From a virus (lineage: Duplodnaviria; Caudoviricetes): a stretch of 64,000 nt of DNA. The translations under genes and the position numbers were made by a program. The notes beneath the pieces are model-generated. The model saw only the letters and a program-made list of their open reading frames with translations. It had not been told where the DNA came from and searched no databases. Shown piece after piece: positions 2,593 to 58,275 of this stretch; the stretch's first letter is position 1, and every line of letters starts with the position of its first letter. The DNA is taken from the IMG/VR virus record IMGVR_UViG_3300042523_000723, positions 1 to 64,000 of that record. One strand, 5' to 3'.

Positions 2593-3528
2593 ATGAATTT
2601 ACAAAACAATATAAGAAGAATATTACTCGAAGAAACGGAACCAAGAGTATTAAATGAATGTGTAATTGCAGGAGTTAAATTAGAAGATACCATTGTTTTG
2701 GCAAAAAATAGGGATAGAGGTTATAAGGCGAAAATTGAATTGGTTCACGAAATAGTTGACGGTGTTGAGATTGCCTATTGGAGAGATACTGATACTGATT
2801 GGAGTGAGGGAATGAATGAGTATGGAATCAGTATTGTAAATTCTGCTTTATCAACCGCTTCCGATGAAAAAGAAGGTGAAAAAGTACTTAAACAACGAAA
2901 AATTAAAAACGATAAAACTGAAAAGAGGGTATACTCAAAAGATGGACAAAAAATAAGAGAAGCTCTTACAAAAAAAGATATGCAATCTGCAGTAAAGTCA
3001 TTAATTGAATTTACTGGAACAAAAAGTAAATGGGGTTTAAGAGGTGAGACATTTGTATCAGATGGTAAAGATATTTATGTTATTGAAATGACATCAAAAC
3101 ATGTACCAATAATTAAAAAATTAGAAGAGGATTCTAAAATAGTTGTTAGATCAAATCATGGAGTATATCAAAAAGATGCGGGATACACTACGGGTGAAAA
3201 AAGAAAATCATCTGTATCTAGAATGGAATTGGCGAAAAAACATTTAAAAGATGCCAAAACAGATATGGATGTAATTAATACATTAAAACAAAAATATGAT
3301 GACGATCCATTCTTAAATCCATATAGGACTAAAAATATGTATAATATGCATACTGTTGGACAAATTATGATGAACATAAAAGAAAAACAAATTGTTATAA
3401 GAATGGACAATGAGATGGGGGAATTTGAGGGTATCAATAATAAATTACCTAAAGGTTATTCACCAAAAATAAAGATAAGAATAGAGAATGAGAAAACTCA
3501 TCACAAAGGGAAAAAATTGCCAACATAA
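2593..3528 (+). CDS. Ntn-hydrolase superfamily protein (NRDE/C45-like) with N-terminal leader
   Basis: Start reassigned to ATG 2593 (MNLQNNIRRILLEE). CVIAG...LAKNRDR, EGMNEYGISIVNS and RSNH are typical of Cys-nucleophile Ntn hydrolases. Confidence 0.7.
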   Translation: MNLQNNIRRILLEETEPRVLNECVIAGVKLEDTIVLAKNRDRGYKAKIELVHEIVDGVEIAYWRDTDTDWSEGMNEYGISIVNSALSTASDEKEGEKVLKQRKIKNDKTEKRVYSKDGQKIREALTKKDMQSAVKSLIEFTGTKSKWGLRGETFVSDGKDIYVIEMTSKHVPIIKKLEEDSKIVVRSNHGVYQKDAGYTTGEKRKSSVSRMELAKKHLKDAKTDMDVINTLKQKYDDDPFLNPYRTKNMYNMHTVGQIMMNIKEKQIVIRMDNEMGEFEGINNKLPKGYSPKIKIRIENEKTHHKGKKLPT

Positions 3529-3529
3529 T

Positions 3530-4156
3530 ATGAACCTACAAGAAGAAATAAAAAGAATAAAGTCAATGATGGGACTTATTAATGAAGAAGTTAAATCTGA
3601 AGAAATGAAAGATGAGAGTAGTTTATATAGTAAACTGTTATCATCTATAAGTAGATTTATTCAAGGTAAAGAATTACATGATTTCTTATTAAAAATTAAA
3701 ACAGTAACATCATTTGATGATTTTACGTTGGAGTATTCAAAAGGTTTTGAAGGTGCGAATCAATTTATAATTAATATTATAGATATTAATAACAATGAAA
3801 AAGTTGGAAAATTTGTAGCATTTGTCTATAAAGATAGTGAAACTAAAAAACACTCATTACAAATACAAAAAGTTGAAATATATCCAAAATATAAGGGTGA
3901 AGGAATAATGAGAAGATTTTATCGGGATTTTAATGAATGGTTAAAAAGTAATTTCAACAACTTTGACATGTTCACTTCCGACTTTATATTCTTATATAAC
4001 GATGAAACAGGAAAGTATGATGGTTATAATATGTGGGAAGATTTAGTTAATAAAGGATTAGCGGTTAGATTAGGTCCAGATGAAAGTTATATTCCACCAG
4101 TTGATCCACCTGCAGATAAAATGTGGAAATTAGATTATGGATACAAACTTATTTAA
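3530..4156 (+). CDS. GNAT-like protein with MNLQEE leader
   Basis: Start ATG 3530. IQKVEIYPKYKGEGIMRRFY resembles GNAT acetyl-CoA-binding motif A. Confidence 0.6.
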   Translation: MNLQEEIKRIKSMMGLINEEVKSEEMKDESSLYSKLLSSISRFIQGKELHDFLLKIKTVTSFDDFTLEYSKGFEGANQFIINIIDINNNEKVGKFVAFVYKDSETKKHSLQIQKVEIYPKYKGEGIMRRFYRDFNEWLKSNFNNFDMFTSDFIFLYNDETGKYDGYNMWEDLVNKGLAVRLGPDESYIPPVDPPADKMWKLDYGYKLI

Positions 4157-4157
4157 T

Positions 4158-4547
4158 ATGAACCTACAAGAACAAATATCAAGAATGAAGTCAATGATGG
4201 GAATGGATAATTCTCGTTTAACTTTTGACATGAAAAAGTTACTCGATGATGGTGTTATTTTTATAACACAGGCTCACAATTTAACCACTGGTAAAATGTA
4301 TCCACCTGAGAAAGACCCTGAAACAGGTGAAATGTATTACGACTCAACAAATTTAATTACATTTCATAATCTTATGGAGCCTGAAAAAGGAACACAAGAT
4401 GGTATACCTGAAGCTATGAAACACCTAAGACCTGATAGGATTGACCATTGGCAACAAACACAAAATGAATTAGTTGATGACAAATATAATCAAATAATAA
4501 AATCAATCGAAATGAAAGGTAAAGATATAGATAATTATACAATATGA
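4158..4547 (+). CDS. hypothetical protein with MNLQEQ leader
   Basis: Start ATG 4158, leader MNLQEQISRMKSMMG. Confidence 0.7.
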   Translation: MNLQEQISRMKSMMGMDNSRLTFDMKKLLDDGVIFITQAHNLTTGKMYPPEKDPETGEMYYDSTNLITFHNLMEPEKGTQDGIPEAMKHLRPDRIDHWQQTQNELVDDKYNQIIKSIEMKGKDIDNYTI

Positions 4548-5071
4548 ACCTGCAAGAAGAAATAAAAAGAATAAAGTCAATGATGGGGATTGTTACAGAA
4601 ACAAGACAAGGAATGTTTAATTGGTTAAAAGAAAAACTACCAAACACTCCTGAATATGTAATAAGAGATTGGGTTTATAAAATGATTACACAATCAGACG
4701 ATGTAAACACATATGAAGGTATTACAGAATGGATTGATGAGTGGGTTAAAGATATGGAATGGGAGTTTCAAAAAGATTTTCCAATATCAATGGATATATT
4801 TACCGATAAAACAAAAAAAGAGTTAGAAAGTAGAATTGGGGGTGAAGTAAGACAAGATGTTGATAAAGATACTGAAAGACATGAAACACAAAAAGATTTA
4901 CTTCAAAGTAAGGGAGTATCTGAAGAACCAATTATTTTATTTAAAACCAAAGATGGTAAGTATGAATTAGGTGAAGGGTGGCATAGAACCACACAGACAT
5001 TTATACAATTCCCCGATGGGTTTATACAACCTAATGTATATATCGGATTAAACGCTAAATGGTTAGATTAA
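4544..5071 (+). CDS. ParB/Srx-like domain protein with MNLQEE leader
   Basis: EEPIILF...YELGEGWHRT resembles the ParB N-terminal xxGxHR motif. Confidence 0.6.
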   Translation: MNLQEEIKRIKSMMGIVTETRQGMFNWLKEKLPNTPEYVIRDWVYKMITQSDDVNTYEGITEWIDEWVKDMEWEFQKDFPISMDIFTDKTKKELESRIGGEVRQDVDKDTERHETQKDLLQSKGVSEEPIILFKTKDGKYELGEGWHRTTQTFIQFPDGFIQPNVYIGLNAKWLD

Positions 5072-5072: not shown

Positions 5073-5795
5073 ATGAACTTACAGGAACAAATACATAGGA
5101 TGAAACAAATGATGGGGATTAATGAAGTAACCAATCCCTATAATGTTAATTGGATTCCACCCACAGAAGAATATTTCACACAAGAGTTAGATGAACTATT
5201 GGGTAATAATATGAGGTTCAGTAAAGACGAATTCTTCCACCCACAAAACTATGATACAGTATATTCATTATTTCCTCACACATTTAAGATGATCGCGGAA
5301 CATTCCAAAGGGGATAACATAGAATCTGAAGAAGAGATAAAAGAAATATTGGTGGGTAAAGAGATTTCTGAATTAATGGATGATTGGAATGAATTTAGAA
5401 GGTCATTGATGATAGATAAAGAATCACAGATGGAGGCTTTCAATTTATTCAGAATGGGAACTATGGAACATTGGGATGATGAAAAAATTAATACCACATT
5501 CTATATGGGTAATTTTAGTAAGAACTTTCCTGATATGTTTAAAGATACCACATCATCAGGTTTATTAAAACAAATGGGTGACGATGTAAATTTACAAGGG
5601 TATAGTAAAAACATAGAGAACTTTAGAAACGATAGGAATTTACAATTACCACCACCTTTTGTAATGTCTTTACCAAATGGAGGGAGAGAAGGTAATATGT
5701 ATACATTAATAGGTGGACATAAGAGATCCACAGTTGCCAGACAGTTAAATGTTCCAGTGGACGTATGGTTTATAAATCTATCCAAAACTAATTAA
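5073..5795 (+). CDS. ParB/Srx-like domain protein with MNLQEQ leader
   Basis: PPPFVM...YTLIGGHKRSTVARQL...VDVWFI. Confidence 0.55.
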   Translation: MNLQEQIHRMKQMMGINEVTNPYNVNWIPPTEEYFTQELDELLGNNMRFSKDEFFHPQNYDTVYSLFPHTFKMIAEHSKGDNIESEEEIKEILVGKEISELMDDWNEFRRSLMIDKESQMEAFNLFRMGTMEHWDDEKINTTFYMGNFSKNFPDMFKDTTSSGLLKQMGDDVNLQGYSKNIENFRNDRNLQLPPPFVMSLPNGGREGNMYTLIGGHKRSTVARQLNVPVDVWFINLSKTN

Positions 5796-17349: not shown

Positions 17350-17613
17350 ATGAAAAGAAGGTTAGACGAAAGAAGGGGATATACAATAGGTGAACTTAGA
17401 AGAATGTCTATATCCGTATTAAAATCATTGGGGATCGAAATGACAGAAACCAATATTCTATTAATGATGGATAAATTTGTTGATGTTATTGGTTTAACTA
17501 AGTCTGGTGTTGTTATGAGAGATATGGGTAGTATTGATAAGGATACTAAGTATTATAAGTTAACTGAATCTGATTTACGTAGAATAGTTAAAAGAGTGAT
17601 TGGTGGAAAATAA
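17350..17613 (+). CDS. small protein with C-terminal LTESDLRRIVKRVI motif
   Basis: Carries the recurrent leader motif at the C-terminus; ATATTTAT upstream. Confidence 0.7.
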   Translation: MKRRLDERRGYTIGELRRMSISVLKSLGIEMTETNILLMMDKFVDVIGLTKSGVVMRDMGSIDKDTKYYKLTESDLRRIVKRVIGGK

Positions 17614-18050: not shown

Positions 18051-18335
18051 ATGGGAAGAATTGAAAAACAAAAAAGATTAATTATTGAACTATCAAATAA
18101 ACGTTTGTTGGGTGAGTCTATAGTTAATATGGAAAAAGTAATAAAAGATATGAAATATAAATTTGGTTATGATGATTTATCTTCCGACATTGTAAATGAG
18201 TTTGAGAGACATATGGGTGGTGATTTAATTAATCAACTAACGACAAATGAATATACTGATTTATTTTCGGATTGGGTGTCGTCCAAAGGACAAACTCCAA
18301 ATTACGGAAACTACAACTCAATGGTGAGTGAGTAG
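18051..18335 (+). CDS. hypothetical protein with MGRIEKQKRL leader
   Basis: Leader shared with 18611, ending RLLGE. Confidence 0.7.
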   Translation: MGRIEKQKRLIIELSNKRLLGESIVNMEKVIKDMKYKFGYDDLSSDIVNEFERHMGGDLINQLTTNEYTDLFSDWVSSKGQTPNYGNYNSMVSE

Positions 18336-30612: not shown

Positions 30613-30747
30613 ATGAATAAAGGTAAAAAAACAATCAGACTTACGGAATCAGAAATGGTTGAGATGATCGAAAGAATCGTTAATGAAGTAAAAAGAGAAA
30701 AAAGAAATCAAATTTCTGAGTCACGTAGAAGATATAATAGAAAATAG
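30613..30747 (+). CDS. 44-aa leader-only micro-protein
   Basis: MNKGKKTIRLTESEMVEMIERIVNEVKREKRNQISESRRRYNRK; below the ORF-track cutoff. Confidence 0.6.
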   Translation: MNKGKKTIRLTESEMVEMIERIVNEVKREKRNQISESRRRYNRK

Positions 30748-44414: not shown

Positions 44415-45268
44415 TGAAGATTAAACTAACGGAAAGACAATATTTAAAAGTTATTACTGAAAATCAAAACCCTAACATTGATAGGTTATTACAAAAGTTT
44501 TTTGACGATACTAGATCCTTAGATGAAGACGAAAAACTATATTATTTTTTCGATATATATGAATTTAATGAAAAAATGATGGGAGTTAGTGATAGATTGT
44601 ATGATTGGTTTAAATATAGTCTTTTAAGTGACATTAAAATGATTAATCGTAGAACTCTTAGTAAATACCAAAATAAAATTAATAATCTTTTAGAATTGTT
44701 AACTACAAAAGAAACTAAAAAAATAATAGATTCTAATAAAAACGTTTTAGAAAAAATTAAAGAATTAATTAAATTAGAAAGTGTTATACCAAAATATTTT
44801 AAAAGTGAAATCTTAAAAGAGTTAATTGATGGATTATTGTTTGATTCCATACAATATCTGTTTAACAATTATGAACCTAAAGAAGCGATTAGACAATCAT
44901 CCATTCTATCTGATCATTTAGGTATAAATAGAATGGAAAATATAGAACCATTAGTTAAAGATTTCGCAGAAAAAAATGGGTTAACTATCATACCTAAACA
45001 TAAAGGGTTCACTCTCCAAAAAGATGAAGGTAGTATGGTTAGGGATTTAATTAATTATATGAAAGATATACCAGAAATACCTAAGAAAACAAAAAGAGGG
45101 TTTTTAGACTTTATTGGTAGTCATTATACGGGTGGGCAATATTCTACCTTTTGGAGTGCGGTTAATAAGGCGGGTATTATACAAAAAGTAGGTGGTGGTA
45201 ATAACGTCACATACGAATTAGGTCCTAACTACAAAGCGTATGAAGAAGGTAATGTAGTTGCATTTTAA
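44414..45268 (+). CDS. hypothetical protein with MKIKLTERQY leader
   Basis: MKIKLTERQYLKVITE-NQ. Confidence 0.7.
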   Translation: MKIKLTERQYLKVITENQNPNIDRLLQKFFDDTRSLDEDEKLYYFFDIYEFNEKMMGVSDRLYDWFKYSLLSDIKMINRRTLSKYQNKINNLLELLTTKETKKIIDSNKNVLEKIKELIKLESVIPKYFKSEILKELIDGLLFDSIQYLFNNYEPKEAIRQSSILSDHLGINRMENIEPLVKDFAEKNGLTIIPKHKGFTLQKDEGSMVRDLINYMKDIPEIPKKTKRGFLDFIGSHYTGGQYSTFWSAVNKAGIIQKVGGGNNVTYELGPNYKAYEEGNVVAF

Positions 45269-45299: not shown

Positions 45300-48200
45300 A
45301 TGGATAGAGCAGAACAACTTAAAATATTTGCTCGATGTTTAGGTGATCCAACATACGCAATAGAAACGTTTTTAAAGACATTTGATTTAACTCAGAAAGG
45401 TATGGTACCTTTTAAGTTGTATTACAAACAAAAAGAAATCATTAAGTCATACGAAAAAAACAATCGTAATCTGGTAACTAAACCTCGGCAGGCAGGTGTG
45501 TCTACAACTACTGCCGCATATATTGCAGTTAAAACTGCCTTTGGTGATCCAGATAACCCACATAAAGTACTTATACTCGCCAATAAACAAACATTGGCGC
45601 AAGAATTTTTAAAAAAAGTAAAAGACTTTTTAGAACAAATACCTTATTGGGTTTGGGGGTTAGATGAGTCAACAGATTATTTAGAGATAAATTCAAAAGG
45701 ACATCTTAAATTAAAATCAAACGGTTGTGAAATTAGAGCCCTCGCAACGTCTAAAGATGCATTAAGGGGTTTTACTCCAACATTCTTAGTAATGGACGAG
45801 GCGGCATTCATCGACAATGGGGCAGATGTATTTGGTGCCGCATTGGCGTCATTAGGTACTGGTGGTAAAATCGCACTTATATCTTGTGTAACGGATGATA
45901 CATTTATTTTCACTGATAAAGGATTAAGACAAGTTTCTGATTTTATAGATTATGGACAACCTGATAACCCTAATGAGGGTTATTATGTGGATGAATACTC
46001 AATTTTAGGGAAAGATAAAACTAGGCAATCGAATATTTTAGTAAATAATGGTTTACAAGATACTATTAAAATTACCACAACAAATAGTTTTTTAGAAGGT
46101 ACATTAACACATAAACTTTGGGTTTATCAGAGTGAAACTAAAATTTATAGTTGGTTACCTATGGGTGAAATAAAAGAAGGTGATTATGTTAATATTCAGT
46201 ATGGTTATAATTTATTTGGGGATGATGATAAAATAGAACATAATTACATCTTTAATAATAAAGAAAAAAAACCAAAAAAGATTTATAAAGAGATTGATAA
46301 TGATTTAAGTTATTTAATAGGGTTATACCTTTCAGAAGGTTCTAGTTATAAAAAATATAATAAAAAAGGTGAATTAGTTGGTGTAAGTATAACATTAACT
46401 TGTGGTGATTTTATTGGGGACTCCATTAATAACGCAGGTTTTAATTATAGTTGTCATGATGGATTACACTATACAATTTCATCTAAATATTTAGGTTCTT
46501 TACTGGAAAATTTAGGCATCGATTTAAGTCTTACCGCAACTAAAAAATTTATACCTAAAAAATTATTATCATTGTCTAAAGAAAAGACTATTCATCTTTT
46601 AAAAGGTTTTATGGATGGAGATGGTTATTCAGATAGTGTTAGGGGTAGAATAGGTATTAATATTTCTTCTAAGAAGATGTGTTTACAAATAAGATATATG
46701 TTATCTAATTTAGGTATTTTAACAGATTATCAAGAAGGTATTAATAAAGGTTCTAAATTGATACCTACAAAAAGTAACTATTATAGATTATCTGCAACAT
46801 CTATTGACGCCTTAAAATACTTTGAACTAATAGGGTTTAATTTTGAAAGAAAAGAAAAGAAAAAAGATTCGATTAAAAAAGTTAATTTAAATAATAGATA
46901 TAGAATCATACCAAACGGTAAAATCATATTGAGACGAATTATTGACGATAATAATTTAGTAAGACGTTTTAGGGGTAGTAATTTAAAATTAACTAGTATT
47001 AGATTAAGTGATAAAAATAAAACCTCAAATCTATCAGTTAACATTTTTAAAAGTTTTATAGATTATATTGAAAACAATTTAGGTATTGATATCACAAAAT
47101 ATAATATTGATAAAATCTTAATGGAAAAAAGTAAATGGGTTAGAGTAAGTAAAATAGAAAAAAGTAAAAATAAAACTTATGATTTTTCATTACCTGAAAC
47201 AGATGATTTTTGGTGTCATTCAGTTTTATATAACAATATATTAGGACACCAAACCCCTAATGGGATGGACGAATTATATTATAAAACATATGATAAATCC
47301 AAAACAGGCGATAATAACTTCAATATTGTGGAAATGAAATGGTATCAGGACATTAGATATAATAGAGGGTTGTATTGGGTTAGAGGTGATGAAAAAGAAG
47401 AAGAGATTAAATGTGAATCATTAGGTAGAACCAAACTTAGGTGGGAATATAAGGGTGTTATATATGAGACAGATGAATCTACAATAGACTATTATGAAGT
47501 AATGGTTAAAGACGGGTGGAAACCATTGTCGCCATGGTATGATGAAATGTCGGCAGATATGGGTGACCCTAAGAAAATCGCACAGGAACTTGACGTTTCA
47601 TTTATTGGGTCAGGTGGTAATGTTATTGAAGATGAATATATAGTCTACCACGAAGAGAATTTCGTCTTCGATCCAAATTTTTCTGCGGAGGCAGAAAAGA
47701 GTATGTGGATATGGAAAAAACCTGAAGTCGGGCACAAATACATAATGGGTGTGGACGTTAGTAGAGGGGACGGTAAAGATAGTTCTACTATTGTTATATT
47801 AGACTTCGAAAACTTAGAACAAGTTGCAGAATTTAAACATAAGTTACCACCCGATATGTTGGCGGAAATTGTTTATAAGTATGGTAATATGTATAACGCG
47901 TATACTATTGTGGATATTACTGGAGGTATGGGTGTGGCAACAGTATTAAAACTTCTGGAGATGGAATATGAATATCTACATTATGATGACCCTAAAAGTA
48001 GAAAATTATCTGAAAAGTATTCGAAGACTGTATACAAACAAGGTGATAAAGTACCGGGATTTAATGTTGGTAATACTCGTCTACAAATGGTTTCTGAATT
48101 AGAAGAACATATTAGAGAAAATAAAACTATAATACGTTCACGGAGATTAATATCAGAACTTAGAACATTTGTTTATAAAAATGGTAGACCGGATCATATG

Positions 48201-48470
48201 GAAGGTTTTAATGATGATATTATTATGGCATATGCAATGGCAATATTCATTGTACAAACATCTTTTAAAAAATTAGAACAAGTGGAAAAACAAACTAAGG
48301 CAATGTTAGAGAGTTGGGTAAATGTGTCAAACATCCAAAGTAAACCAATGATTAATGGACAACAACACATTAATCCCTTCTATACTAACACACCAACGTA
48401 TAATCCAGTCCACCCCAATAATGGTAATAATGATAATGGTGAATACAACTGGTTATTCGGAATTAAATAG
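45300..48470 (+). CDS. terL: terminase large subunit (T4 gp17-like), intein-containing
   Basis: KPRQAGVST (Walker A), LVMDEAAF (Walker B), coupling motif IS|TPNG split by the intein, nuclease MGVDVSRG and DDIIMA. Confidence 0.95.
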   Translation: MDRAEQLKIFARCLGDPTYAIETFLKTFDLTQKGMVPFKLYYKQKEIIKSYEKNNRNLVTKPRQAGVSTTTAAYIAVKTAFGDPDNPHKVLILANKQTLAQEFLKKVKDFLEQIPYWVWGLDESTDYLEINSKGHLKLKSNGCEIRALATSKDALRGFTPTFLVMDEAAFIDNGADVFGAALASLGTGGKIALISCVTDDTFIFTDKGLRQVSDFIDYGQPDNPNEGYYVDEYSILGKDKTRQSNILVNNGLQDTIKITTTNSFLEGTLTHKLWVYQSETKIYSWLPMGEIKEGDYVNIQYGYNLFGDDDKIEHNYIFNNKEKKPKKIYKEIDNDLSYLIGLYLSEGSSYKKYNKKGELVGVSITLTCGDFIGDSINNAGFNYSCHDGLHYTISSKYLGSLLENLGIDLSLTATKKFIPKKLLSLSKEKTIHLLKGFMDGDGYSDSVRGRIGINISSKKMCLQIRYMLSNLGILTDYQEGINKGSKLIPTKSNYYRLSATSIDALKYFELIGFNFERKEKKKDSIKKVNLNNRYRIIPNGKIILRRIIDDNNLVRRFRGSNLKLTSIRLSDKNKTSNLSVNIFKSFIDYIENNLGIDITKYNIDKILMEKSKWVRVSKIEKSKNKTYDFSLPETDDFWCHSVLYNNILGHQTPNGMDELYYKTYDKSKTGDNNFNIVEMKWYQDIRYNRGLYWVRGDEKEEEIKCESLGRTKLRWEYKGVIYETDESTIDYYEVMVKDGWKPLSPWYDEMSADMGDPKKIAQELDVSFIGSGGNVIEDEYIVYHEENFVFDPNFSAEAEKSMWIWKKPEVGHKYIMGVDVSRGDGKDSSTIVILDFENLEQVAEFKHKLPPDMLAEIVYKYGNMYNAYTIVDITGGMGVATVLKLLEMEYEYLHYDDPKSRKLSEKYSKTVYKQGDKVPGFNVGNTRLQMVSELEEHIRENKTIIRSRRLISELRTFVYKNGRPDHMEGFNDDIIMAYAMAIFIVQTSFKKLEQVEKQTKAMLESWVNVSNIQSKPMINGQQHINPFYTNTPTYNPVHPNNGNNDNGEYNWLFGIK
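45885..47252 (+). mobile_element. intein with LAGLIDADG endonuclease, Gln-terminated (456 aa)
   Basis: CVTDDT start, GTLTH block B, LIGLYLSEGS and LKGFMDGDG, TYDFSLP, ends GHQ followed by Thr+1. Confidence 0.9.
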
Positions 48471-48533: not shown

Positions 48534-50444
48534 ATGGCAAAAAAAACAATATTCCAACAATTAAACGATTTATTTGGCCCAGAGGTTGTGAAACCGCAAA
48601 ATAAATCAAGGTATTCAATTAACGATAAAGAACTTCTTAAAACTAAATCTAAAGAAGAATATGATTTTGAAAAGTTAAAAAGACAACAAGATTCGTATCT
48701 TTCTAATATGTGGCAAAAAGTGGATAATGAAATCTACCAACATTCCATATATTATGAAACAACTAGGTTAGCATCTTATGCGGATTTTGAGGGTATGGAG
48801 TTTTTTCCCGAAATCGCCGCCGCATTAGATATAATGATGGAAGAATCTACCACATTAAATTCGGATAACAAAGTTATTAACATATTTTCTGAAAGTAGGA
48901 GAGTTAGAAGAATATTAGAAGACTTATTTTTTAATAGATTAGATATACATACATCATTACCTATGTGGACGAGAAATGTTTGTAAATATGGTGATGATTT
49001 TTTATTCCTCAATATAGATAGTGAAGAAGGGATTACAGGTGTTAAACAATTACCAAATATTGAGATTAGTAGAAAGGAAAATGAAGGTTTCGGTGAAAAT
49101 CCTGCGAATGCCGAAACTGATAAAATTAACCCAATTAAATTTATATGGGGTCAAAGAAATATTGAGTTTAATGCGTGGCAAATCGCACACTTTAGGTTGT
49201 TGGGCGATGATAGGAGACTACCTTACGGAACTTCAATGTTGGAAAAAGCGAGAAGGATATGGAAACAATTGTTACTTTCTGAAGATGCGATGTTGATATA
49301 CAGAGTAACTAGGGCACCTGAAAGAAGAATCTTTAAAATATTTGTCGGTAACATTGATGAGAAAGATGTACCCGCATATGTTAACAATATTGCGAATAAT
49401 TTTAAAAGAAGTCCTGTTATTGATCAAAACACGGGGCAGGTAGACACTAGATATAATCAAATGGCTCAGGACCAAGACTATTTTATCCCAGTAAGAGACA
49501 CAAACGCACCTTCACCAATAGAGACTCTACCAGGAGCATCTAACCTATCTGAGATTGCAGACATTCAATACCTTCAGAAAAAATTGTTTACTGCACTTAG
49601 AGTACCTAAACCATTCTTAGGATTTGAGGAGGTTAATGGTGAAGGTAAAAACTTAGCGTTACAAGATATTAGATTTGCTAGAACAATCAATAGAATTCAA
49701 CAAGCAATGATACAAGAATTAAATAAGATTGCTATCATTCATTTATATATTTTAGGGTTAGAAGATGAGTTAGAAAACTTTACACTAACATTGAATAACC
49801 CGTCTACTCAGGCAGAGATGTTAAAGGTAGAACAAACTCAATTAAAGGTAACCCTATATAAAGATGTAGTATCAGATGCGGGTAATGGATTCGGAACAAT
49901 GTCAATGACTAGGGCGAAAAAAGAAATTTTAGGAATGTCTGAAGAAGAAATAAGAAATGATTTAGAACAACAAAGATTAGAAAAAGCTGCCGCAGCAGAA
50001 ATGGAACAAACCGCAACTATCATTAAGAAGACAGGTATCTTTGATAGGGTAGATAAACTTTATGGTGATTTTTCTACATTAACCGGTGGTGTACCCGCAG
50101 AGGGTGGTGGTGAAGAAGGTGAAGGCACAGGTGGTGATGACTTAGGTGGGTTCGGAACAGACACTGGAGGTGACTTAGGTGGAATCGGAACAGACACTGG
50201 TGGTGCAGAACCCGCACCAACCGAAGAGTCAATAAAGAAAAAAGACAATCTTTTATTAGAGCAAGGAAGAAGAAGATACGAAGAGAAAGTTAATAAATAT
50301 CAAAGAATTTATTTAAATAGACTTATGGAAAGTTTAGATAAGGATGAAAGGGTTTTTAACTTAGATGAGGTAGAAAAGGATACTGAAATACTAAACTCTA
50401 AAATTAGTGATATGGCAAAAGAAATCGATAATTTAATTAAATAG
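48534..50444 (+). CDS. portal protein (T4 gp20-like)
   Basis: PEIAAALD, YGTSMLEKARR.WKQL.L.EDAMLIYRVTRAPERRIF, DYFIPVR, IETLPG. Confidence 0.95.
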   Translation: MAKKTIFQQLNDLFGPEVVKPQNKSRYSINDKELLKTKSKEEYDFEKLKRQQDSYLSNMWQKVDNEIYQHSIYYETTRLASYADFEGMEFFPEIAAALDIMMEESTTLNSDNKVINIFSESRRVRRILEDLFFNRLDIHTSLPMWTRNVCKYGDDFLFLNIDSEEGITGVKQLPNIEISRKENEGFGENPANAETDKINPIKFIWGQRNIEFNAWQIAHFRLLGDDRRLPYGTSMLEKARRIWKQLLLSEDAMLIYRVTRAPERRIFKIFVGNIDEKDVPAYVNNIANNFKRSPVIDQNTGQVDTRYNQMAQDQDYFIPVRDTNAPSPIETLPGASNLSEIADIQYLQKKLFTALRVPKPFLGFEEVNGEGKNLALQDIRFARTINRIQQAMIQELNKIAIIHLYILGLEDELENFTLTLNNPSTQAEMLKVEQTQLKVTLYKDVVSDAGNGFGTMSMTRAKKEILGMSEEEIRNDLEQQRLEKAAAAEMEQTATIIKKTGIFDRVDKLYGDFSTLTGGVPAEGGGEEGEGTGGDDLGGFGTDTGGDLGGIGTDTGGAEPAPTEESIKKKDNLLLEQGRRRYEEKVNKYQRIYLNRLMESLDKDERVFNLDEVEKDTEILNSKISDMAKEIDNLIK

Positions 50445-50486: not shown

Positions 50487-51251
50487 ATGGAGAATTTTGG
50501 TAATATTAAAGATACCTTTAAAAATTTAGTAGTAGAGTCTATAATTAAAAAAAACGAAAAGAGTAAAAAACTATTTTCTAAATTTTTAAAAACAATTAAA
50601 GAAAATAAAACATTAAAGAATCAATATCTAATTTATAGTAATTTACAAAATAGTAGGTTCGATGATGGTGTTGAGGCGAAAGAATTCGTTAAGGAGAATA
50701 TTGAACTACTTAAAGGTTTAAACGAAGGACATATCGTAAAAGGTAATGAGTTTTTCGTTAAATTACTTAAAGGTAATAAAATCATAAAAGAAAATCAAGA
50801 ATTCTATAATAAAATATCTTATTTAGTTAACACCGAAAAAACACCTTCGAATATTAAAAAAATTAATGAGACAATTAATTATATAGTTAAAAATATGTTA
50901 GAAAAAGAGGAAGTAAAAGAGGTTGTTACGGAAAGTGTATATTTACCACCTAGTGTGTTAACAAAATTGGCAGTAAATAAGTTTAATTCTAGATATTCTA
51001 ACATTAGTGAGTCAGAAAAAGAAATCATTAAAACAGTACTTAATGGTACAAGTGAAGATAAAGAAAATATTTTCAATAAATTAAAAAGAGAGTGTATTGA
51101 TGGTATCGATACTAAATTAAATGAGTCTTCTGATTTAGATCTTAAAGATAAACTATTAAAAGTTAAGGATAAACTACTGAACAATAGTTTCAACATAGAT
51201 TCTTTTACTACTGATATTACAAGATTACACGATTTAAAAGAATCAATATAA
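50487..51251 (+). CDS. head-module hypothetical protein
   Basis: Located between portal and protease; several (L/V)xE sites. Confidence 0.7.
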   Translation: MENFGNIKDTFKNLVVESIIKKNEKSKKLFSKFLKTIKENKTLKNQYLIYSNLQNSRFDDGVEAKEFVKENIELLKGLNEGHIVKGNEFFVKLLKGNKIIKENQEFYNKISYLVNTEKTPSNIKKINETINYIVKNMLEKEEVKEVVTESVYLPPSVLTKLAVNKFNSRYSNISESEKEIIKTVLNGTSEDKENIFNKLKRECIDGIDTKLNESSDLDLKDKLLKVKDKLLNNSFNIDSFTTDITRLHDLKESI

Positions 51252-51271
51252 CTAATAAAAAAATAAGAAAA

Positions 51272-51622
51272 ATGAAAAAAAGAGTAATAAGACTTAGTGA
51301 ATCTGATTTACAAAGAATTGTAAAAAGAGTGATTAAAGAAAATATGATTAATGAATTAGGTGGGATGGACGATGGACACCCTAGATTCGGTGATGTTAAA
51401 TTTTCTGATTTATCGAGAGACGAAATATTAAGAATGGGTGGTAGTGAATACTCAGAAGATTCTGACGATGATTTAACTGATGACAATGAATATTATGACT
51501 TTGATGGTGATATTGATGACTTAAAGGGTGGTCGTAGAGGGAAATTGCCAATTATGAGGTCAATGCCTTCACGACATAATACCGGAGATAGACCGTTCAG
51601 AAGAGGAAATAGAAAAATGTAA
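51272..51622 (+). CDS. small protein with MKKRVIRLSESDL leader
   Basis: MKKRVIRLSESDLQRIVKRVIKENMINE, acidic middle, basic tail. Confidence 0.7.
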   Translation: MKKRVIRLSESDLQRIVKRVIKENMINELGGMDDGHPRFGDVKFSDLSRDEILRMGGSEYSEDSDDDLTDDNEYYDFDGDIDDLKGGRRGKLPIMRSMPSRHNTGDRPFRRGNRKM

Positions 51623-52264: not shown

Positions 52265-54076
52265 ATGGAAATATTAAAAAATAACGATAGCAATAAGAGG
52301 GGTGTCCTTATTGAGTATGATTCGGGATACATTTCACCAAAAGATAACCAGAACTTTATTAGTGAAATGACTAAACTATCAAAAGGGGAACCTATCATAG
52401 AGGAACCTTTGATAGTTTATGCGGTTATGCAAAAATATGGGGTAGAAAACAGAAATGGAAGAGTATACCCTGAAGCTATACTTAGACGAGAAGCGGAAAA
52501 CTACCTTAAACTTATTAAAGAAAAAAGAGCGTTAGGGGAATGCGTACCTGAAGGTACTGAGATTTACACCACTGATGGGTGGTTTAAAATTGAGGATGTT
52601 AAAGTTGGTGATAAAATTTTAACAATGAATATTGATACCAACTTCATTGAGGAACAAAATGTTACGGATACTATCAAAAAACAATATGACGATGACTTAA
52701 TCCATATCTATAACAATAGTAGTTTAGACATGAAAATCACTAAAAAACATAAAGTAGTATTATGGGATAGAAATGATAAATCTTATATCTTAACTGGTGA
52801 AGAATTATATGATAAAATAAAAAATAAAGATTCTAAAGTATCTCATTCTTATATTAAACATTCCGCAGAATGGGTAGGTGATTCACCTAAAACTTATACA
52901 TTAAAAAATAGTGATATTACTATAGATATAGAAGATTGGGTTTCTTTTTTAGGTATTTTTATTGCCGATGGACATTGTAGTGGAACTAAAGGTGGCAATA
53001 AGAAAAATTTAGTATGTATTACACAAGTGAAGGAAGAGTCCTCAAAAATGATTGAGTCTTTACTTGAACGGTTACCTTTTAAATATAGTGTATCAGATAA
53101 CAGACAATATAACATATATAGTAAAGAATTATATGATGAATTGTTCAGTTTAGGGAATTCATATCAAAAACATATACCTAATTATATTAAACAATACTCA
53201 CCGGAATTGTTAAATATTTTATTAGATTGGTTATTACTTGGTGATGGAAGAAACAGACACAATAGTAAAAATGAATTAATTAAAGAATATGTCACTACAT
53301 CAAAATCTTTGGCAGATGACGTATTCGAAATTATAGTAAAACTAGGGTACGGTGCAACAATTAACACAATCACACCAAAAGATAGAATTATTGTTGATGA
53401 AAACGTAGTCTTTAGTGAGGTTGAAAATGAAGATGGAACAATTTCTTTAATTAAAGAAAAAATTAAAACTAAACGATTAATAAAATCTTCTGATTCTAAA
53501 GTATTATATAATGTACACCTTAGAACTAATAAGGGAATTTATTTAGATCATAGATTTATAAAGATTGATAAGATTAAACATAATGATTATGTATACTGTG
53601 TAACTGTCCCTAATAGTACGTGGTTAATGAGATCAAATAATAAGATCTCTTGGACACATAATTGTGACCACCCAGAATCATCTATTGTTGCGGTAAGTAG
53701 AATTTCTCATAATGTGGTAGACCTTTGGTGGGAAGGTAATGTACTTATGGGTAAGTTAGAAATCATTATGTCACCGGGATTCGTAAACCAAGGAATTATA
53801 TCTTGTGAAGGTGACAGAGTAGCGAATTATTTGAGAAAAGGTTTAAAGATTGGTGTGTCATCAAGAGGTGTAGGTTCTTTGGAAAAAGAAGGTGGTAAGA
53901 ATATAGTGCAAGACGATTTTGAATTAATTTGTTGGGATATTGTTACCTCACCGTCTACTCCAGGTTCTTGGATTTATAGTGATGTTCCATCTAGAGAACA
54001 ACAGATGTCTGAGTCGAATATTAAAAAAGAAGATGCTATCCTTAAAGATAATTTAAATAATTTTTTACTCGATTAG
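52265..54076 (+). CDS. prohead core protease (T4 gp21-like), intein-containing
   Basis: NRNGRVYP, ALGE|CDHP, SHNV, GVSSRGVGSL, DIVTSPSTPGS; start probably ATG 52265. Confidence 0.93.
   Translation: MEILKNNDSNKRGVLIEYDSGYISPKDNQNFISEMTKLSKGEPIIEEPLIVYAVMQKYGVENRNGRVYPEAILRREAENYLKLIKEKRALGECVPEGTEIYTTDGWFKIEDVKVGDKILTMNIDTNFIEEQNVTDTIKKQYDDDLIHIYNNSSLDMKITKKHKVVLWDRNDKSYILTGEELYDKIKNKDSKVSHSYIKHSAEWVGDSPKTYTLKNSDITIDIEDWVSFLGIFIADGHCSGTKGGNKKNLVCITQVKEESSKMIESLLERLPFKYSVSDNRQYNIYSKELYDELFSLGNSYQKHIPNYIKQYSPELLNILLDWLLLGDGRNRHNSKNELIKEYVTTSKSLADDVFEIIVKLGYGATINTITPKDRIIVDENVVFSEVENEDGTISLIKEKIKTKRLIKSSDSKVLYNVHLRTNKGIYLDHRFIKIDKIKHNDYVYCVTVPNSTWLMRSNNKISWTHNCDHPESSIVAVSRISHNVVDLWWEGNVLMGKLEIIMSPGFVNQGIISCEGDRVANYLRKGLKIGVSSRGVGSLEKEGGKNIVQDDFELICWDIVTSPSTPGSWIYSDVPSREQQMSESNIKKEDAILKDNLNNFLLD
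52541..53662 (+). mobile_element. intein with LAGLIDADG endonuclease (374 aa)
   Basis: CVPEGTE start, ITKKH block B, FLGIFIADGH and LLLGDGR, VYCVTVP, ends THN followed by Cys+1. Confidence 0.92.
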
Positions 54077-54175: not shown

Positions 54176-55531
54176 ATGGCTGAAAAAAAGAAATCAATCA
54201 TCGAAGAGGCTTTACTAGAAGCAAAGTCTTTAGAGGATGCCTTAAAAGCCAATACGAAAGAAATGCTTGCGGCACTTATGTCCAAGGAATTTGAAAGTAT
54301 CGTCGAGTCATCTTTGAAAAAGGGAGATGAAGAAAAAGAAAAAAAAGTCTCAGAACAAGAAGATGAGATAGATTTAGAAATGATCGATACAGAAGTTAAA
54401 GGATCCGATGATGAAGAAGAAGAAGAAGACCTTTTAGATCTTGAAGATGAAGAATCTGATGAGGTGGAAGACATCGAATTAGATTTAGATGATGAAGTAT
54501 CTGATGAAGAGTCTGATGACATTGAACTTGACTTAGACACCGACCTAGACTTAGACGCTAGTGAAGGTGAAGAAGGAGAGGAAATGAAATTAGATTTAGA
54601 ATTACCTTTTATGGGTATGGGAGGAGAAGAAGTAATGGACTTAACAGGTGCGTCTGATGACGAAGTTGTTAAAGTTTTCAAAAAACTCTCTGACGATGAT
54701 GAAGTAGAAGTTGTAAAAGATGCTGGTGGTATCCATCTAACAGATAATAAAACAGGTGCAGAGTATTACATTAAGGAATCTATGGATGAAATGAGACATT
54801 CTATGAACGAAAAAGAGTATTGCGCTGAAGGGAATTGCGGTTCTATGTACGAAGAAGTAATGTACGAGATAGAATTAGACGAAGATTCCGACATGATGGA
54901 AATGTTTAAAGAAATGGGTGGTATGAAAAAAAGTCACTATGGTGAAGACTACCACATGGAAGAAGGCGCTTACATTGATGAGGAAGAAGAAAAATTAGAA
55001 GAGGACAAACTACAAAGACACAGAAAGTTCGCTGGTAAACAAAGATACAGTGGCACTAAAGTGGGTAGAAGAGACGAATCTATAAAACTTCGTAAACCTT
55101 TAGTAAATAGAACCCCAAAATCATCTACAGTTTCTGAATCTAAGATAATGAAAGAATACACAGAGTTAAAATCTAAAAACGAAGAGTATAAGAAAGCACT
55201 TAATGTATTCAAAGACAAACTTAATGAGGTGGCTTTGTTTAACACTAACTTAGCGTATGTGAATAGAATCTTCACTGAGCATTCGACAACGAAAAAAGAA
55301 AAAATGGATATCCTTAAGAGGTTTGACAATGCTGAGTCGATAAAAGAGTCTAAGAACATATACAAAACAATTAAGACTGAGTTAGATAATAAGAAACCAA
55401 TTAACGAGTCAGTACAAAAAAAAGTTAATAAGACTATTGAGTCGTCAAAGTCGCAAAATCTAAATGAGTCTACAGCATATGTAGATCCACAGATATCTGC
55501 GATTAAAGATTTAATGAGAAGAATCTCATAA
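54176..55531 (+). CDS. prohead scaffolding/core protein
   Basis: Very acidic coiled-coil ORF between protease and capsid genes with many (L/I/V)xE sites (VSES, INES, LNES). Confidence 0.8.
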   Translation: MAEKKKSIIEEALLEAKSLEDALKANTKEMLAALMSKEFESIVESSLKKGDEEKEKKVSEQEDEIDLEMIDTEVKGSDDEEEEEDLLDLEDEESDEVEDIELDLDDEVSDEESDDIELDLDTDLDLDASEGEEGEEMKLDLELPFMGMGGEEVMDLTGASDDEVVKVFKKLSDDDEVEVVKDAGGIHLTDNKTGAEYYIKESMDEMRHSMNEKEYCAEGNCGSMYEEVMYEIELDEDSDMMEMFKEMGGMKKSHYGEDYHMEEGAYIDEEEEKLEEDKLQRHRKFAGKQRYSGTKVGRRDESIKLRKPLVNRTPKSSTVSESKIMKEYTELKSKNEEYKKALNVFKDKLNEVALFNTNLAYVNRIFTEHSTTKKEKMDILKRFDNAESIKESKNIYKTIKTELDNKKPINESVQKKVNKTIESSKSQNLNESTAYVDPQISAIKDLMRRIS

Positions 55532-55570: not shown

Positions 55571-57325
55571 ATGGGACATTTGTTAAATTCAGGTCAAGTC
55601 GGAAACATCGGACTAGAGCACCTAAAGCAAATCAGATCTAAAACTATTTCTAAGTGGACCTCATTAGGTTTCCTTGAAGGTTTGAAAGGTCACGTAAAAG
55701 AGAACATCGCACAATTGTACGAAAACCAAGCATCTTCTTTACTTAATGAGTCGACTTCGTCTGATTCATCAGGTTCATTCGAGACAGTGGTATTTCCAAT
55801 TGTACGAAGAGTATTCTCTAAATTATTGGCTAACGATATCGTATCGGTACAAGCGATGAACATGCCAATTGGAAAATTATTCTTCTTTGTACCTAAAACA
55901 TCATCTACACAAGTTCCTTTGAACGGTAAAGATGGTTCCGCTAACGGATCATTACCAGCATGTGTTATTTCTGGATGTAATGAAGATACACTTATCACTC
56001 CATTCTTAGAGAAGTCACTATATGACTTATACTATAATGATGGATTGTTTGACGCATCTAAAGGTAAAAAAATCGTTTTTGCTGGGGCAGGTTTCTATGG
56101 TGCAACACTTAACGCTAATGGTGTGAAAGTACCTACTAATTTATCATCACAACCTAAAGCTTCGGATGGTTCATTCAGAAGTGTTAAAATGTGTGTAACA
56201 GGTTTCTCTACTACTAACGCAGGTAGATTAACTGGACCAGACGGAAACGAAATGGATACTGAATCTTTCTTATCTTCTTTATCAGTAGTTTCTACACCAG
56301 CAATTGTTGATGGTGATGGTAAACAAATTATTGCTGCAGGTGGTAGTGTACCATTTAGAGTAGTAACTCAGAAATACGGAAGAGGTATCGTTGATTATGG
56401 TGATATCTGTACTCCTGATGGATGTTTACTAATCGAATTGGACCTTACACATCCAGCTTGTATTGATTGTTCTTCTGCTAACTTTGACGGATATGTTGGT
56501 GCGGCAACTGGAACTTCATTTACAGGTTTGACTGTAGCTTGGTCCAGATACGAATCATTAGAATTCTCAACTGAAATGGGTGAGGTATCATTCGAACTTG
56601 ATGAAGTTGTGGTTTCTGTAACAGAAAGAAAACTAAGAGCTACTTGGTCACCAGAATTGGCACAAGACGTTAGTGCATTCCATAACATTGATGCAGAAGC
56701 AGAACTTACGGCGTTATTGTCTGAGCAAGTTGCGGCGGAAATCGATAGAGAGATCCTAAGAGACTTAAGAAAAGGTTCGGCTTGGCAATTGAGATGGGAT
56801 TACAACGGATGGAAACGAGCTAACAATGGTGGTGGTTTCAACGCTTACACTCAAAAAGAGTGGAATCAAACGTTGATTACTAAAATCAATCAAATCTCAG
56901 CTCAAATTCATAAGGCTACTTTAAGAGGTGGTGCTAACTTCATCGTTGTTTCGTCTGAAGTTTCTGCTATCTTTGATGACTTAGAATACTTCCACGTATC
57001 TAACGCATCTCCAGAGCAAGATCAGTACAATATGGGTATTGAGAAGATTGGTTCATTAGGAGGAAGATATACTGTATATCGTGATCCATATGCACCGGCT
57101 AACTCAATCATCATTGGACACAAAGGAAAATCATTGTTGGATACTGGGTACGTTTACGCACCTTACGTACCTCTACAATTGACTCCTACGTTACAAAACC
57201 CGTTCAACTTCGCACCAACGAAGGGTATCATGACTAGATACGCTAAGAAAATGGTTAATAACCGTTTCTATGGTGTAGTTACAGTTGATGGAGTTCAAAC
57301 ATTCGATGTAAACGAATTGAGATAA
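55571..57325 (+). CDS. major capsid protein (T4 gp23-like)
   Basis: LYENQ...LLNES, FPIVRRVF, VSVQAMNMP, RKLRATWSPELAQD, EIDREIL, YAPYVPL, KGIMTRY. Confidence 0.97.
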   Translation: MGHLLNSGQVGNIGLEHLKQIRSKTISKWTSLGFLEGLKGHVKENIAQLYENQASSLLNESTSSDSSGSFETVVFPIVRRVFSKLLANDIVSVQAMNMPIGKLFFFVPKTSSTQVPLNGKDGSANGSLPACVISGCNEDTLITPFLEKSLYDLYYNDGLFDASKGKKIVFAGAGFYGATLNANGVKVPTNLSSQPKASDGSFRSVKMCVTGFSTTNAGRLTGPDGNEMDTESFLSSLSVVSTPAIVDGDGKQIIAAGGSVPFRVVTQKYGRGIVDYGDICTPDGCLLIELDLTHPACIDCSSANFDGYVGAATGTSFTGLTVAWSRYESLEFSTEMGEVSFELDEVVVSVTERKLRATWSPELAQDVSAFHNIDAEAELTALLSEQVAAEIDREILRDLRKGSAWQLRWDYNGWKRANNGGGFNAYTQKEWNQTLITKINQISAQIHKATLRGGANFIVVSSEVSAIFDDLEYFHVSNASPEQDQYNMGIEKIGSLGGRYTVYRDPYAPANSIIIGHKGKSLLDTGYVYAPYVPLQLTPTLQNPFNFAPTKGIMTRYAKKMVNNRFYGVVTVDGVQTFDVNELR

Positions 57326-57346
57326 TCGATTTAAAGAGTGAATATA

Positions 57347-57374
57347 AAAGGGTAGATTTTGTCTACCCTTTTTT
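57347..57374 (+). terminator. intrinsic terminator after the capsid gene
   Basis: aaagggtaga-tttt-gtctaccctttttt. Confidence 0.85.
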
Positions 57375-57411
57375 GTTTTATAAGATATTTATTATTATAT
57401 TTACATTATAT

Positions 57412-58275
57412 ATGATAATCAAAAAGAAATACGTACTATTAGAGTCTTTATTAATAGATGATACAAATGAATTTGACGCAACTGAAAAAAGAATTTTTAA
57501 GACGTTAAATATCCAATACGGTGACCCAATGAAAGGTGGTGAGGAGGGTAAGAAACCATTCACTCAATGGGAAGTCGCAGCATGGTTAATTGAGAATATT
57601 GAAATTCCATATGATATGGCTTATGGGTTGACAAAAACGTATTATTGGAACTACGATAAACTTTTTAGTGAAACGACTTCTCTTAGAAAAACAATCCCTT
57701 CCGCACAATTATTCAAGGATCATCATCAAACATTAAGTAAATTATTTAGAGATAAATTAACGAATGATTTATATGGGCAAATAAAAATTAATATTGATAG
57801 GGATACGGGTGTAGAAGACATGAGAGATATTAATTTTTGGGGGGGATATTCGGGAGTTGTCCTATACTTACCTTTTATGACTATGGATAATAATGGCAAT
57901 TATATCTATGGTGATGATAGAAATGGTAGAAATTTAATAGTAGACGTATTTTACCGTATATTAGATAAGGAAGGTAATATTGTTGACGGTTATTTCACAG
58001 ATGATAAGTATCAAGAAAAAATTGATAATGAAAAATTTAAGGTTGTCGTAAAATATACGTTAGGTGAGACAACTGATAGAGAAGGAAGTGGTAGACAGTT
58101 TAATTTAATGGAATTTGATGTTCCATACCCTAAACCATTGTCTTTAAAAACATATTCAGAGATGTTAAATCTAATTTTGGGTGATGTCATTAAAAAGATA
58201 GAATCGATGACATTTACTTTACCTCCCCACTTAGACGGTTTTGAGGAATCTAGTGGAGATTCTCAACCTGATTAA
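57412..58275 (+). CDS. hypothetical protein with leader-like N-terminus
   Basis: Start ATG 57412 (MIIKKKYVLLES) after ATATTTAT. Confidence 0.65.
   Translation: MIIKKKYVLLESLLIDDTNEFDATEKRIFKTLNIQYGDPMKGGEEGKKPFTQWEVAAWLIENIEIPYDMAYGLTKTYYWNYDKLFSETTSLRKTIPSAQLFKDHHQTLSKLFRDKLTNDLYGQIKINIDRDTGVEDMRDINFWGGYSGVVLYLPFMTMDNNGNYIYGDDRNGRNLIVDVFYRILDKEGNIVDGYFTDDKYQEKIDNEKFKVVVKYTLGETTDREGSGRQFNLMEFDVPYPKPLSLKTYSEMLNLILGDVIKKIESMTFTLPPHLDGFEESSGDSQPD

Follow-up and report, generated by a model that had tools for sequence, protein, structure and literature searches.

Recurring N-terminal leaders as candidate capsid address tags in an uncultured giant relative of phage T4

The window analysed here is a stretch of 64,000 nucleotides of viral DNA (positions 1 to 64,000 of IMG/VR record IMGVR_UViG_3300042523_000723), the first 64 kb of a single 85,810-base contig with a G+C content of 24-36%. 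Our subject is a set of short N-terminal peptides, here called leaders, that recur on unrelated proteins of the window and mostly end in (L/I)xE. The original prediction, made from the sequence alone, had proposed that these peptides load cargo into the phage capsid and are removed there by a prohead protease of the phage T4 type.

Leaders and the proteins that carry them

The leaders are grouped into classes A (with subclasses A1 and A2), B and C, and genes are named by their first coordinate. The following genes of the window carry a leader or a related motif; the E values are those of the respective leader profile.

2593..3528, + strand: predicted Cys-type N-terminal nucleophile (Ntn) hydrolase with a 22-residue subclass A2 leader (2593-2658), LNE standing directly before Cys23
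3530..4156, + strand: class A1 leader protein; leader 3530-3586 with motif R-I-K-S-M-M-G, ending in INE (E 2.5e-9)
4158..4547, + strand: class A1 leader protein; leader 4158-4202 (E 2.5e-9)
4544..5071, + strand: class A1 leader protein; leader 4544-4600, ending in VTE (E 4.1e-10)
5073..5795, + strand: class A1 leader protein; leader 5073-5126, ending in INE (E 6.6e-9)
17350..17613, + strand: small protein with a C-terminal class B copy (17548-17610) lacking the final xE (E 5.7e-7)
18051..18335, + strand: class C leader protein; leader 18051-18116, ending in LGE
18362..18598, + strand: class B short-form leader protein; leader 18362-18409, ending in LTE (E 4.4e-7)
18611..18931, + strand: class C leader protein; leader 18611-18676, ending in LNE
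19522..20805, + strand: class A1-like leader protein, in which residues 11-17 read R-M-R-K-L-M-G (A1 profile E only 0.83)
23058..23498, + strand: class B leader protein; leader 23058-23144, ending in LDE (E 1.9e-4)
25803..26825, + strand: subclass A2 leader protein; leader 25803-25838 (E 2.2e-5)
28341..28892, + strand: lysozyme with a class B short-form leader, 28341-28388, ending in IIE
28937..30574, + strand: class B short-form leader protein; leader 28937-28984, ending in LKE (E 0.013)
30613..30747, + strand: 44-residue open reading frame (ORF) with a long class B leader, 30613-30687, ending in VNE (E 1.2e-5), and a basic tail
38187..40226, + strand: 679-residue protein with a scaffold-tail-type DLM motif in its N-terminus (38187-38279), followed by TLNE|S
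40628..41125, + strand: class B leader protein; leader 40628-40693, ending in LME (E 4.7e-3)
44414..45268, + strand: class B short-form leader protein just upstream of the large terminase gene; leader 44414-44461, ending in ITE (E 6.7e-3)
51272..51622, + strand: 116-residue acidic protein with a long class B leader, 51272-51340, ending in IKE (E 1.3e-8)

Sequence comparison identifies the leaders as real and far above chance. When residues 2-25 of the 99 proteins predicted on the contig were compared all against all without gaps, 26 of 4851 pairs scored at least 35 (about 2.8 expected), 16 at least 40 (1.1 expected) and 8 at least 50 (none expected), the expectation being taken from 8742 control pairs of internal segments. 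The best BLASTP E value between bodies (residues 31 onward of 22 leader proteins) was 0.73, and full-length comparisons of leader proteins align the leaders only (first 16-42 residues). In the class A genes the DNA encoding the leader shows synonymous differences and the DNA upstream of it is not conserved, which argues for selection on the peptide.

Profiles were built from the leaders of the window and iterated on 321 sources (2.24 Mb) at a cut-off of E<=0.01. The A1 profile gave 36 matches, all of them N-terminal, and the class B profile 274, of which 262 are N-terminal (Met no more than 10 residues upstream). The two A2 motifs, those of 2593 and 25803, stand directly after the initiator Met in 15 of 15 and 6 of 7 matches, on differing bodies. 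In their extreme N-terminal position the leaders resemble the capsid-targeting sequences (CTS) of T4. They are also comparably short: 15-31 residues in the window and 7-30 in orthologs of the Ntn hydrolase, against 10-19 in T4. By sequence they are charged amphipathic helices and not signal peptides.

The central observation of the original prediction, that about 20 proteins with unrelated bodies begin with a few recurring leaders, was borne out, and the N-termini read as it had described them. Seventeen of its 22 members have profile or motif support: 3530, 4158, 4544, 5073 and 19522 in class A, with 2593 and 25803 forming the related subclass A2; 18362, 23058, 28341, 28937, 30613, 40628, 44414 and 51272 in class B; and 18051 and 18611 in class C, by their mutual match alone (82% identity over residues 1-22, bodies unrelated). 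Such support did not extend to 21545, 6307, 12327, 27214 and 41129, and coordinate 27214 in fact belongs to a minus-strand gene (26813-27214). Three leader proteins came in addition to those first listed: 38187 (scaffold-tail-like), 17350 (C-terminal class B) and, weakly, 36995. The functional names given to the bodies fared unevenly. Lysozyme (28341; Pfam Phage_lysozyme 1.4e-24 at residues 51-171), DUF192 (3e-20) and the Ntn hydrolase (2593, by fold) stand; PRTase, OmpA (19522, Pfam 2.8e-4) and LRR (28937, LRR_4 7.6e-5) matched only below threshold; and for GNAT, zinc peptidase and ParB/Srx on a leader protein we obtained no match here.

Individual leaders are retained in relatives. That of 5073, found at seven relative loci, is kept in 6 of 6 unique aligned sequences, and leader genes there form tandem arrays. 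The lysozyme leader recurs in 14 of 14 unique related N-termini, 12 of them on lysozyme-type bodies of varied length and the other two (L313 and L315, matching over the leader only) on different bodies. Orthologs of 44414 with the same leader occur at five loci. The N-terminus of 38187 is kept in all 12 relative N-termini examined (7 unique). Some very small ORFs (30613-30747 in the window, and others at three relative loci) have nothing but a Lys/Arg-rich tail behind their class B leader, which brings to mind the basic proteins and peptides inside T4 heads.

Class B is widespread among uncultured relatives. A degenerate DNA pattern for its core, which stops before the cut site, found at least 127 stretches in IMG/VR, and 75 of the 79 unique matches listed have a Met within 6 residues upstream. 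In three complete relatives the class B profile has 10 matches (356 kb), 29 (296 kb) and 18 (272 kb) at E<=1, and the uncultured genome LR756508 holds 4 (E<0.01). Of 35 leader-bearing records of at least 40 kb, 15 encode gp23; four of the 35 reach 90% completeness, and all four are among those 15. BLASTP clustering of the 236 unique bodies that follow an A1 or B leader and have at least 50 residues gave 157 clusters (139 B, 18 A1), a number that may be inflated by bodies cut at locus ends. A tblastn search of 50,697 phage records with a class B leader of 30 residues yielded a single weak match (E 9).

The head module, the leader ends and the Ntn hydrolase

The window also carries a head module in T4 gene order: large terminase (TerL), gp20-type portal, S77 protease, scaffold and gp23 capsid protein.

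45300..48470, + strand: TerL with a LAGLIDADG insertion (Pfam)
48534..50444, + strand: T4 gp20-type portal (Pfam Portal_T4 1.9e-78)
50487..51251, + strand: conserved head-module protein between portal and protease, with orthologs in 9 of 9 relatives inspected
52265..54076, + strand: gp21-family (S77) prohead protease with an intein and a C-terminal tail after MSE|S (Pfam)
54176..55531, + strand: scaffold protein, from its position (as T4 gene 22) and the tails of relatives
55571..57325, + strand: gp23-type major capsid protein (Pfam Gp23 2e-71; 33% identity to T4 gp23)

A megablast search found no close phage record. The best portal matches are Microcystis phage Mel-JY01 (42% identity) and Flavobacterium phage immuto (35.5%), and the best capsid protein matches are LR756508 (43%) and Mel-JY01 (40%). 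IMG/VR holds at least 598 capsid protein relatives, of which 80 were retained; these are 51-91% identical and lie on contigs of up to 356 kb, so that the contig studied here is probably a piece of a 270-360-kb genome. By its sequence, the source is an uncultured giant relative of phage T4; presumably such phages infect low-GC Bacteroidota.

The protease reading frame scores 5.5e-18 for Pfam S77 (65.6 bits against a cut-off of 27), 38.8 bits for Intein_splicing (cut-off 35.8) and also matches LAGLIDADG_3. The S77 domain is split by a class-1 intein with a homing endonuclease domain: 374 residues (about 52541-53662) inserted directly before the conserved D-H-P motif, with Cys at the start, His-Asn at the end and Cys thereafter, where relatives without the insert have Ala. 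With an intein inside the prohead protease, splicing must precede any head maturation. A close relative has the protease without an intein; its sequence shares 92% and 82% identity with the two exteins of the window and 32% with T4 gp21 (E 4e-25). At its N-terminus (52265-52315) the protease has L-I-E at residues 15-17, kept in relatives as G-[IVL]-L-I-E-Y-D; T4 gp21 also has an LIE site near its N-terminus, thought to be self-cleaved, which this arrangement recalls.

An upstream motif, ATATTTAT, is common to leader genes and head genes. It has 49 matches in the window against 27.4 +/- 5.1 expected, a count that none of 100 shuffles reached. It stands 12-68 nt upstream of TerL, portal, protease and scaffold, and within 70 nt upstream of 27 of the 71 listed genes, among them those four and 50487. 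Seven of the 20 solid leader genes lie directly behind it and 12 more in same-strand runs (gaps of 51 nt or less) behind such a gene, 23058 being the only one with no match within 70 nt or in its run. With 19 of 20, the earlier statement that most leader genes or their operons follow the motif that also precedes TerL, portal and scaffold is confirmed. We assume ATATTTAT to be a late promoter.

Class B leaders come in lengths of 16, 20 and 24 columns, and [ILVM]xE ends at column 16, 20 or 24 in 193 of 209 unique class B blocks, compared with 10 of 209 at control columns 30, 34 and 38; this count is partly circular because the profile includes those columns, and a set selected with a pattern that ends before the site shows the same ending. 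Behind the Glu the sequences diverge. In class A1 the site falls at columns 17-22 in 20 of 27 blocks. An (L/I)xE end is therefore the rule for the leaders, with exceptions among A1 and the C-terminal copies. Around N-termini in general [LI]xE is enriched only about 1.6-fold; it is present in 30 of the 51 genes on the plus strand before 58 kb and in 13 of the remaining 43.

The capsid protein carries the same kind of site. Its N-terminal region aligns with that of T4 gp23, which has LTE at residues 63-65, and all 62 unique relatives have [LIM]xE|[SA] with N, T, Y, K or S as the middle residue; in the window the site is LNE60|S, which would end a predicted 60-residue propeptide (55571-55750). 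According to passages of a published account, gp21 removes the first 65 residues of T4 gp23 (PMC9958956). From the alignment, the capsid position is equivalent to LTE65|A of T4. The window thus encodes a gp21-family protease together with a capsid protein bearing the site motif of the leaders. The scaffold keeps several [LIVM]xE sites, the last about 20 residues before the C-terminus, and 50487 keeps [IL]xE|[SA] near residue 17. That the same LNE sites occur in scaffold and capsid propeptide, as had been claimed, holds: LNE|S is found in both.

Class A leaders share a further feature with the head proteins. The class A profile gives weak matches at the C-termini of relatives' scaffolds and proteases. 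A census of R[MIV][KR].[LM]MG covered the six-frame ORFs of 81 sources, 795,000 residues in all, and returned 21 matches: 12 at scaffold C-termini (one on a truncated locus), 3 at protease C-termini, 6 in class A leaders and none elsewhere. An hhalign comparison of two profiles, one from 26 A1 leaders and one from 45 scaffold tails, gave an alignment of 13 columns (P 2.5e-4). An x-D-L-M-x-[KR] helix behind an [LIVM]xE site is common to the scaffold tails (60 unique relatives) and the protease tails (56 unique relatives); in the window, the last LNE|S of the scaffold is followed by a 20-residue C-terminal tail (55469-55528) with I-K-D-L-M. The conserved family of 600-700-residue proteins to which 38187 belongs has the same DLM motif at the N-terminus, followed by TL[NT]E|S. 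In other viruses, scaffold and protease are held to the shell by such C-terminal tails, and by analogy the class A leaders probably use the binding site of the scaffold and protease tails. When the first 40 residues of the 5073 family, which include its class A leader, were modelled in complex with the capsid protein, without controls, the score was 0.00, a result that bears on binding in neither direction.

The clearest case of a functional junction is the protein encoded by 2593. Its AF2 model (mean pLDDT 84.3, on an alignment of 46 sequences) has a predicted Ntn-hydrolase fold: Foldseek matches the isopenicillin-N acyltransferase AAT (2x1c) with E 1e-8, and VIA-align gives Z scores of 16-21 to NAAA, AAT, acid ceramidase, BSH and PVA (21.1 to 3gvz, 20.7 to NAAA 6dy2_B, 19.4 to AAT 2x1d_A). 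By sequence, the Pfam AAT match stays under the cut-off (E 0.0042), and single-sequence and profile searches of the PDB found nothing relevant. Residue 23 of the model pairs with the chain starts of the mature enzymes, namely residue 126 of human NAAA (beta), 143 of acid ceramidase (beta), 103 of mature AAT, 1 of PVA and 2 of BSH. The first residue of these mature Cys-Ntn chains, with which Cys23 is aligned, is the catalytic nucleophile. In the model, Cys23 would therefore be both nucleophile and residue 1 of the mature chain.

Glu22 and Cys23 are invariant in the 46 sequences, and [LIMF]xE stands directly before the Cys in all 54 unique orthologs (40-98% identical). The leaders in front of it are 7-30 residues long and A1-like, A2, B-like or minimal in form. 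Since the junction is kept behind differing leaders, the body appears to need a cut right after the Glu, and tags have been exchanged on one body. We know of no solved Ntn relative in which the residues before the nucleophile are of the LxE kind. Two peptide patterns for this family, run against 185,579 prokaryote genomes, gave 15 stretches, none of which was confirmed. Activation of cargo by the protease, proposed as a general property, thus has one good case, that of 2593 with its invariant [LIMF]xE|Cys junction.

The leaders as probable clip-off capsid address tags

Given these observations we consider it probable, at about 0.7, that the leaders are clip-off capsid address tags, a T4-style targeting system with several tag classes and many cargo proteins. 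That (L/I)xE is cut by the T4-type prohead protease, as originally proposed, agrees with the conserved capsid site, the LxE|Cys junction and the motif common to scaffold and protease tails, and is at odds with the leaders that lack a site.

A number of observations count against this assignment. Seven of the 27 A1 blocks have no site at columns 17-22; one of them is 4158, in which no [ILVM]xE follows directly behind the motif. The leaders of 2593, 3530, 4158, 4544 and 5073 all open with M-N-L-Q-E, which places an LxE at residues 3-5 that may be a further cut site or belong to the docking helix. By chance, 26.7 of 94 internal 20-residue windows hold [LI]xE, and the triplet is not depleted in bodies (observed/expected 1.32 in 17 leader bodies and 1.11 in 77 other proteins). 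Being common and undepleted, the motif alone cannot define cutting, and accessibility would have to decide; passages of PMC9026906 likewise describe gp21 cutting as dependent on accessibility. Class C matches only two genes, both of the window, in the 321 sources. ATATTTAT also stands upstream of genes without leaders. No cultured relative was found, the nearest isolates having 35-42% portal identity and no class B, and 20 of the 35 leader-bearing records show no gp23, all of them estimated at 13-63% completeness.

The exceptions of position also belong here. Twelve of the 274 class B matches are not N-terminal, and in an earlier search of 81 sources four of six such matches belonged to one family with the motif near residue 142. 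The members of this family (L011:6061-6918, L019:3433-4281, L065:13587-14093 and L068:4221-5693) lie downstream of the capsid gene, and the internal motif might mark a polyprotein that is cut in two. The C-terminal class B copies, in 17350 and at one relative locus (L128), have no final Glu, which implies that the helix can act unclipped.

The exceptions bear on a different explanation, in which the leaders are propeptides, or regulatory or oligomerising helices, unrelated to the capsid and removed, if at all, by self-processing or by a cytoplasmic protease. Ntn hydrolases can self-process, so the E|C cut in 2593 could arise without the prohead protease; amphipathic helices serve interactions of many kinds; and the internal and C-terminal copies without a cut site, together with the chance frequency of (L/I)xE, would sit comfortably with it. 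It gives no reason for the junction motif to be the conserved motif of the capsid propeptide, for class A to carry a motif that is otherwise confined to the tails of scaffold and protease, or for at least 157 unrelated body clusters to need one helix, and we regard it as unlikely. Still less credible to us is that the leaders address another phage machine, such as a split ClpB/ClpC-like ATPase with Hsp20, tail or baseplate assembly, or export. Clp-type unfoldases are commonly addressed by N-terminal tags, and the window does encode a Clp-type two-AAA ATPase (30949-33180, - strand), a separate Clp_N protein (33424-34146, - strand) and Hsp20 (35213-35665, + strand), but no link between leaders and these genes was found and none of the three stands behind ATATTTAT. 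The motif common to scaffold and protease tails points to the head, and charged amphipathic helices do not resemble signal peptides.

The shared gene starts could, finally, be recombination or expression cassettes whose peptide has no role of its own. Leader genes do stand in tandem arrays with junctions of 1 nt to -4 nt, and hyperplastic gene arrays are typical of T4-like genomes. Against this, the peptides are kept through synonymous changes while the upstream DNA is not conserved, and their amphipathic periodicity and terminal [ILVM]xE persist where capsid proteins are only 51-91% identical; we give this explanation very little weight.

If the leaders are address tags, we infer that binding, cutting, packaging and ejection would proceed as follows. 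Leader genes would be transcribed together with the head genes from units headed by ATATTTAT. The amphipathic leader of 15-31 residues would dock its protein into the assembling prohead, class A doing so through the R-[MI]-K-x-[LM]-M-G / DLM helix also found at the ends of scaffold and protease. After shell assembly, the gp21-family protease would cut behind the Glu of [LIVM]-x-E at the leader end, in the capsid protein at LNE60 and at several places in the scaffold, and the cargo would be freed inside the head. In 2593 the cut would create the N-terminal catalytic Cys, so that the enzyme would become active only in the matured head. By analogy with the internal proteins of T4, the cargo would enter the next host together with the DNA; on that analogy, the injected effector arsenal of the original prediction is plausible. 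A further step, on which we are only tentative, is that the clade possesses a modular address code in which at least three docking peptides, one of them copied from the tail of scaffold and protease, load dozens of proteins per genome, some of them zymogens that the maturation protease alone would arm, for delivery to the host.

The principle is known from T4. In the passages of three papers (PMC9026906, PMC5694885, PMC3012670), IPI, IPII, IPIII and Alt are described as carrying CTS propeptides of 10-19 residues that target them to the prohead core and are removed by gp21, and the authors suggest that the CTS lets T4-like phages load varied proteins; two of them add that the CTS suffices to package foreign proteins (PMC9026906, PMC5694885). 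The likeness lies in short N-terminal propeptides on unrelated proteins, the (L/I)xE end and variable cargo genes, as far as these passages describe the T4 system, and in a gp21-family protease and a gp23 capsid propeptide with the same kind of site in both phages. No sequence relatedness to the T4 CTS was found: the class B profile has no match in the genomes of T4, Mel-JY01 or immuto, classes A and C not having been searched against T4. Scale, tag classes, the copy of the scaffold and protease tail and the zymogen case differ. There are at least three tag classes here, with length variants of 16, 20 and 24, and tens of carriers per genome where T4 has four; among the cargo are a lysozyme and an Ntn hydrolase, the tail of scaffold and protease recurs in one class, and the function is predicted from sequence.

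The giant phages phiKZ, 201phi2-1 and SPN3US offer a second comparison. Passages of PMC5694885 describe many head proteins cut behind Glu by a gp21-related protease, paralogs with conserved N-termini in phiKZ-like phages, a protease cut at its own C-terminus, a motif of A/S/G-x-E, propeptides mostly longer than 100 residues, and processing of 8 of about 50 head proteins in SPN3US. Here, in contrast, the tags are short, end in L/I/V/M-x-E and accompany a T4-like head module.

For P22, herpesviruses and HK97-type proteases, a short helix at the C-terminus of scaffold and protease is thought to tie these proteins to the inside of the shell; here the two have one tail motif in common behind a cut site, and by analogy with those viruses the tail may bind the capsid. 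In the literature passages covered, we found no description of a tail motif re-used as an N-terminal cargo tag. Encapsulin cargo-loading peptides are also short tags that direct unrelated enzymes into an HK97-fold shell. They are usually C-terminal and uncleaved and work without protease or DNA packaging, whereas the leaders are N-terminal with a predicted cut. Our search, with subscription journals and supplements outside it, found no paper on these leaders or their motif strings and none joining a prohead protease with an Ntn hydrolase.

If the tags work as proposed, the cargo of uncultured 270-360-kb phages could be predicted from sequence, amounting to tens of proteins in each genome and to no fewer than 157 body clusters in the DNA sampled. 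If the address code holds as well, the injected effector set of such phages would be readable directly from sequence. Packaged and injected proteins are the first phage products to face host defences, and the carriers would therefore supply candidates for anti-defence and takeover factors. The mimicry of the scaffold tail suggests a route for recruiting new cargo, and the case of the Ntn hydrolase suggests that the maturation of the head also switches on an enzyme. For engineering, the tags could be used to direct chosen proteins into heads, a use to which the T4 CTS is already put.

Neighbouring genes and further features

The gene 51272 was considered as a conserved gp67-like core protein and this was rejected, a class B ORF being present upstream of the protease in only 3 of 52 loci. 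The 45 related proteins in the protein collection (query residues 1-40) are all its own orthologs, without Pfam domains, and the gene has no counterpart in the closest relatives. It lies within 51252-51780 of the head module, an interval flanked by 50487 and 51781 and, in relatives, by their orthologs. Variable genes accumulate at this hotspot; those inserted there differ among four relative loci, and some have class B leaders.

Beyond the window, at 64000-85810, the contig continues with a minus-strand block of about 20 genes, many of them look-alikes of glycosyltransferases and sugar-nucleotide enzymes, and no leader-type N-termini were seen there. No tRNA and no Rfam family were found in the window, the ORF-poor stretches 9715-10860 and 15324-16429 included.

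TerL has 1056 residues where close relatives have about 600, with LAGLIDADG_3 at residues 433-512, and from its sequence the insertion is probably a second intein. The window also contains a GIY-YIG homing endonuclease gene at 11188-11940 on the minus strand.

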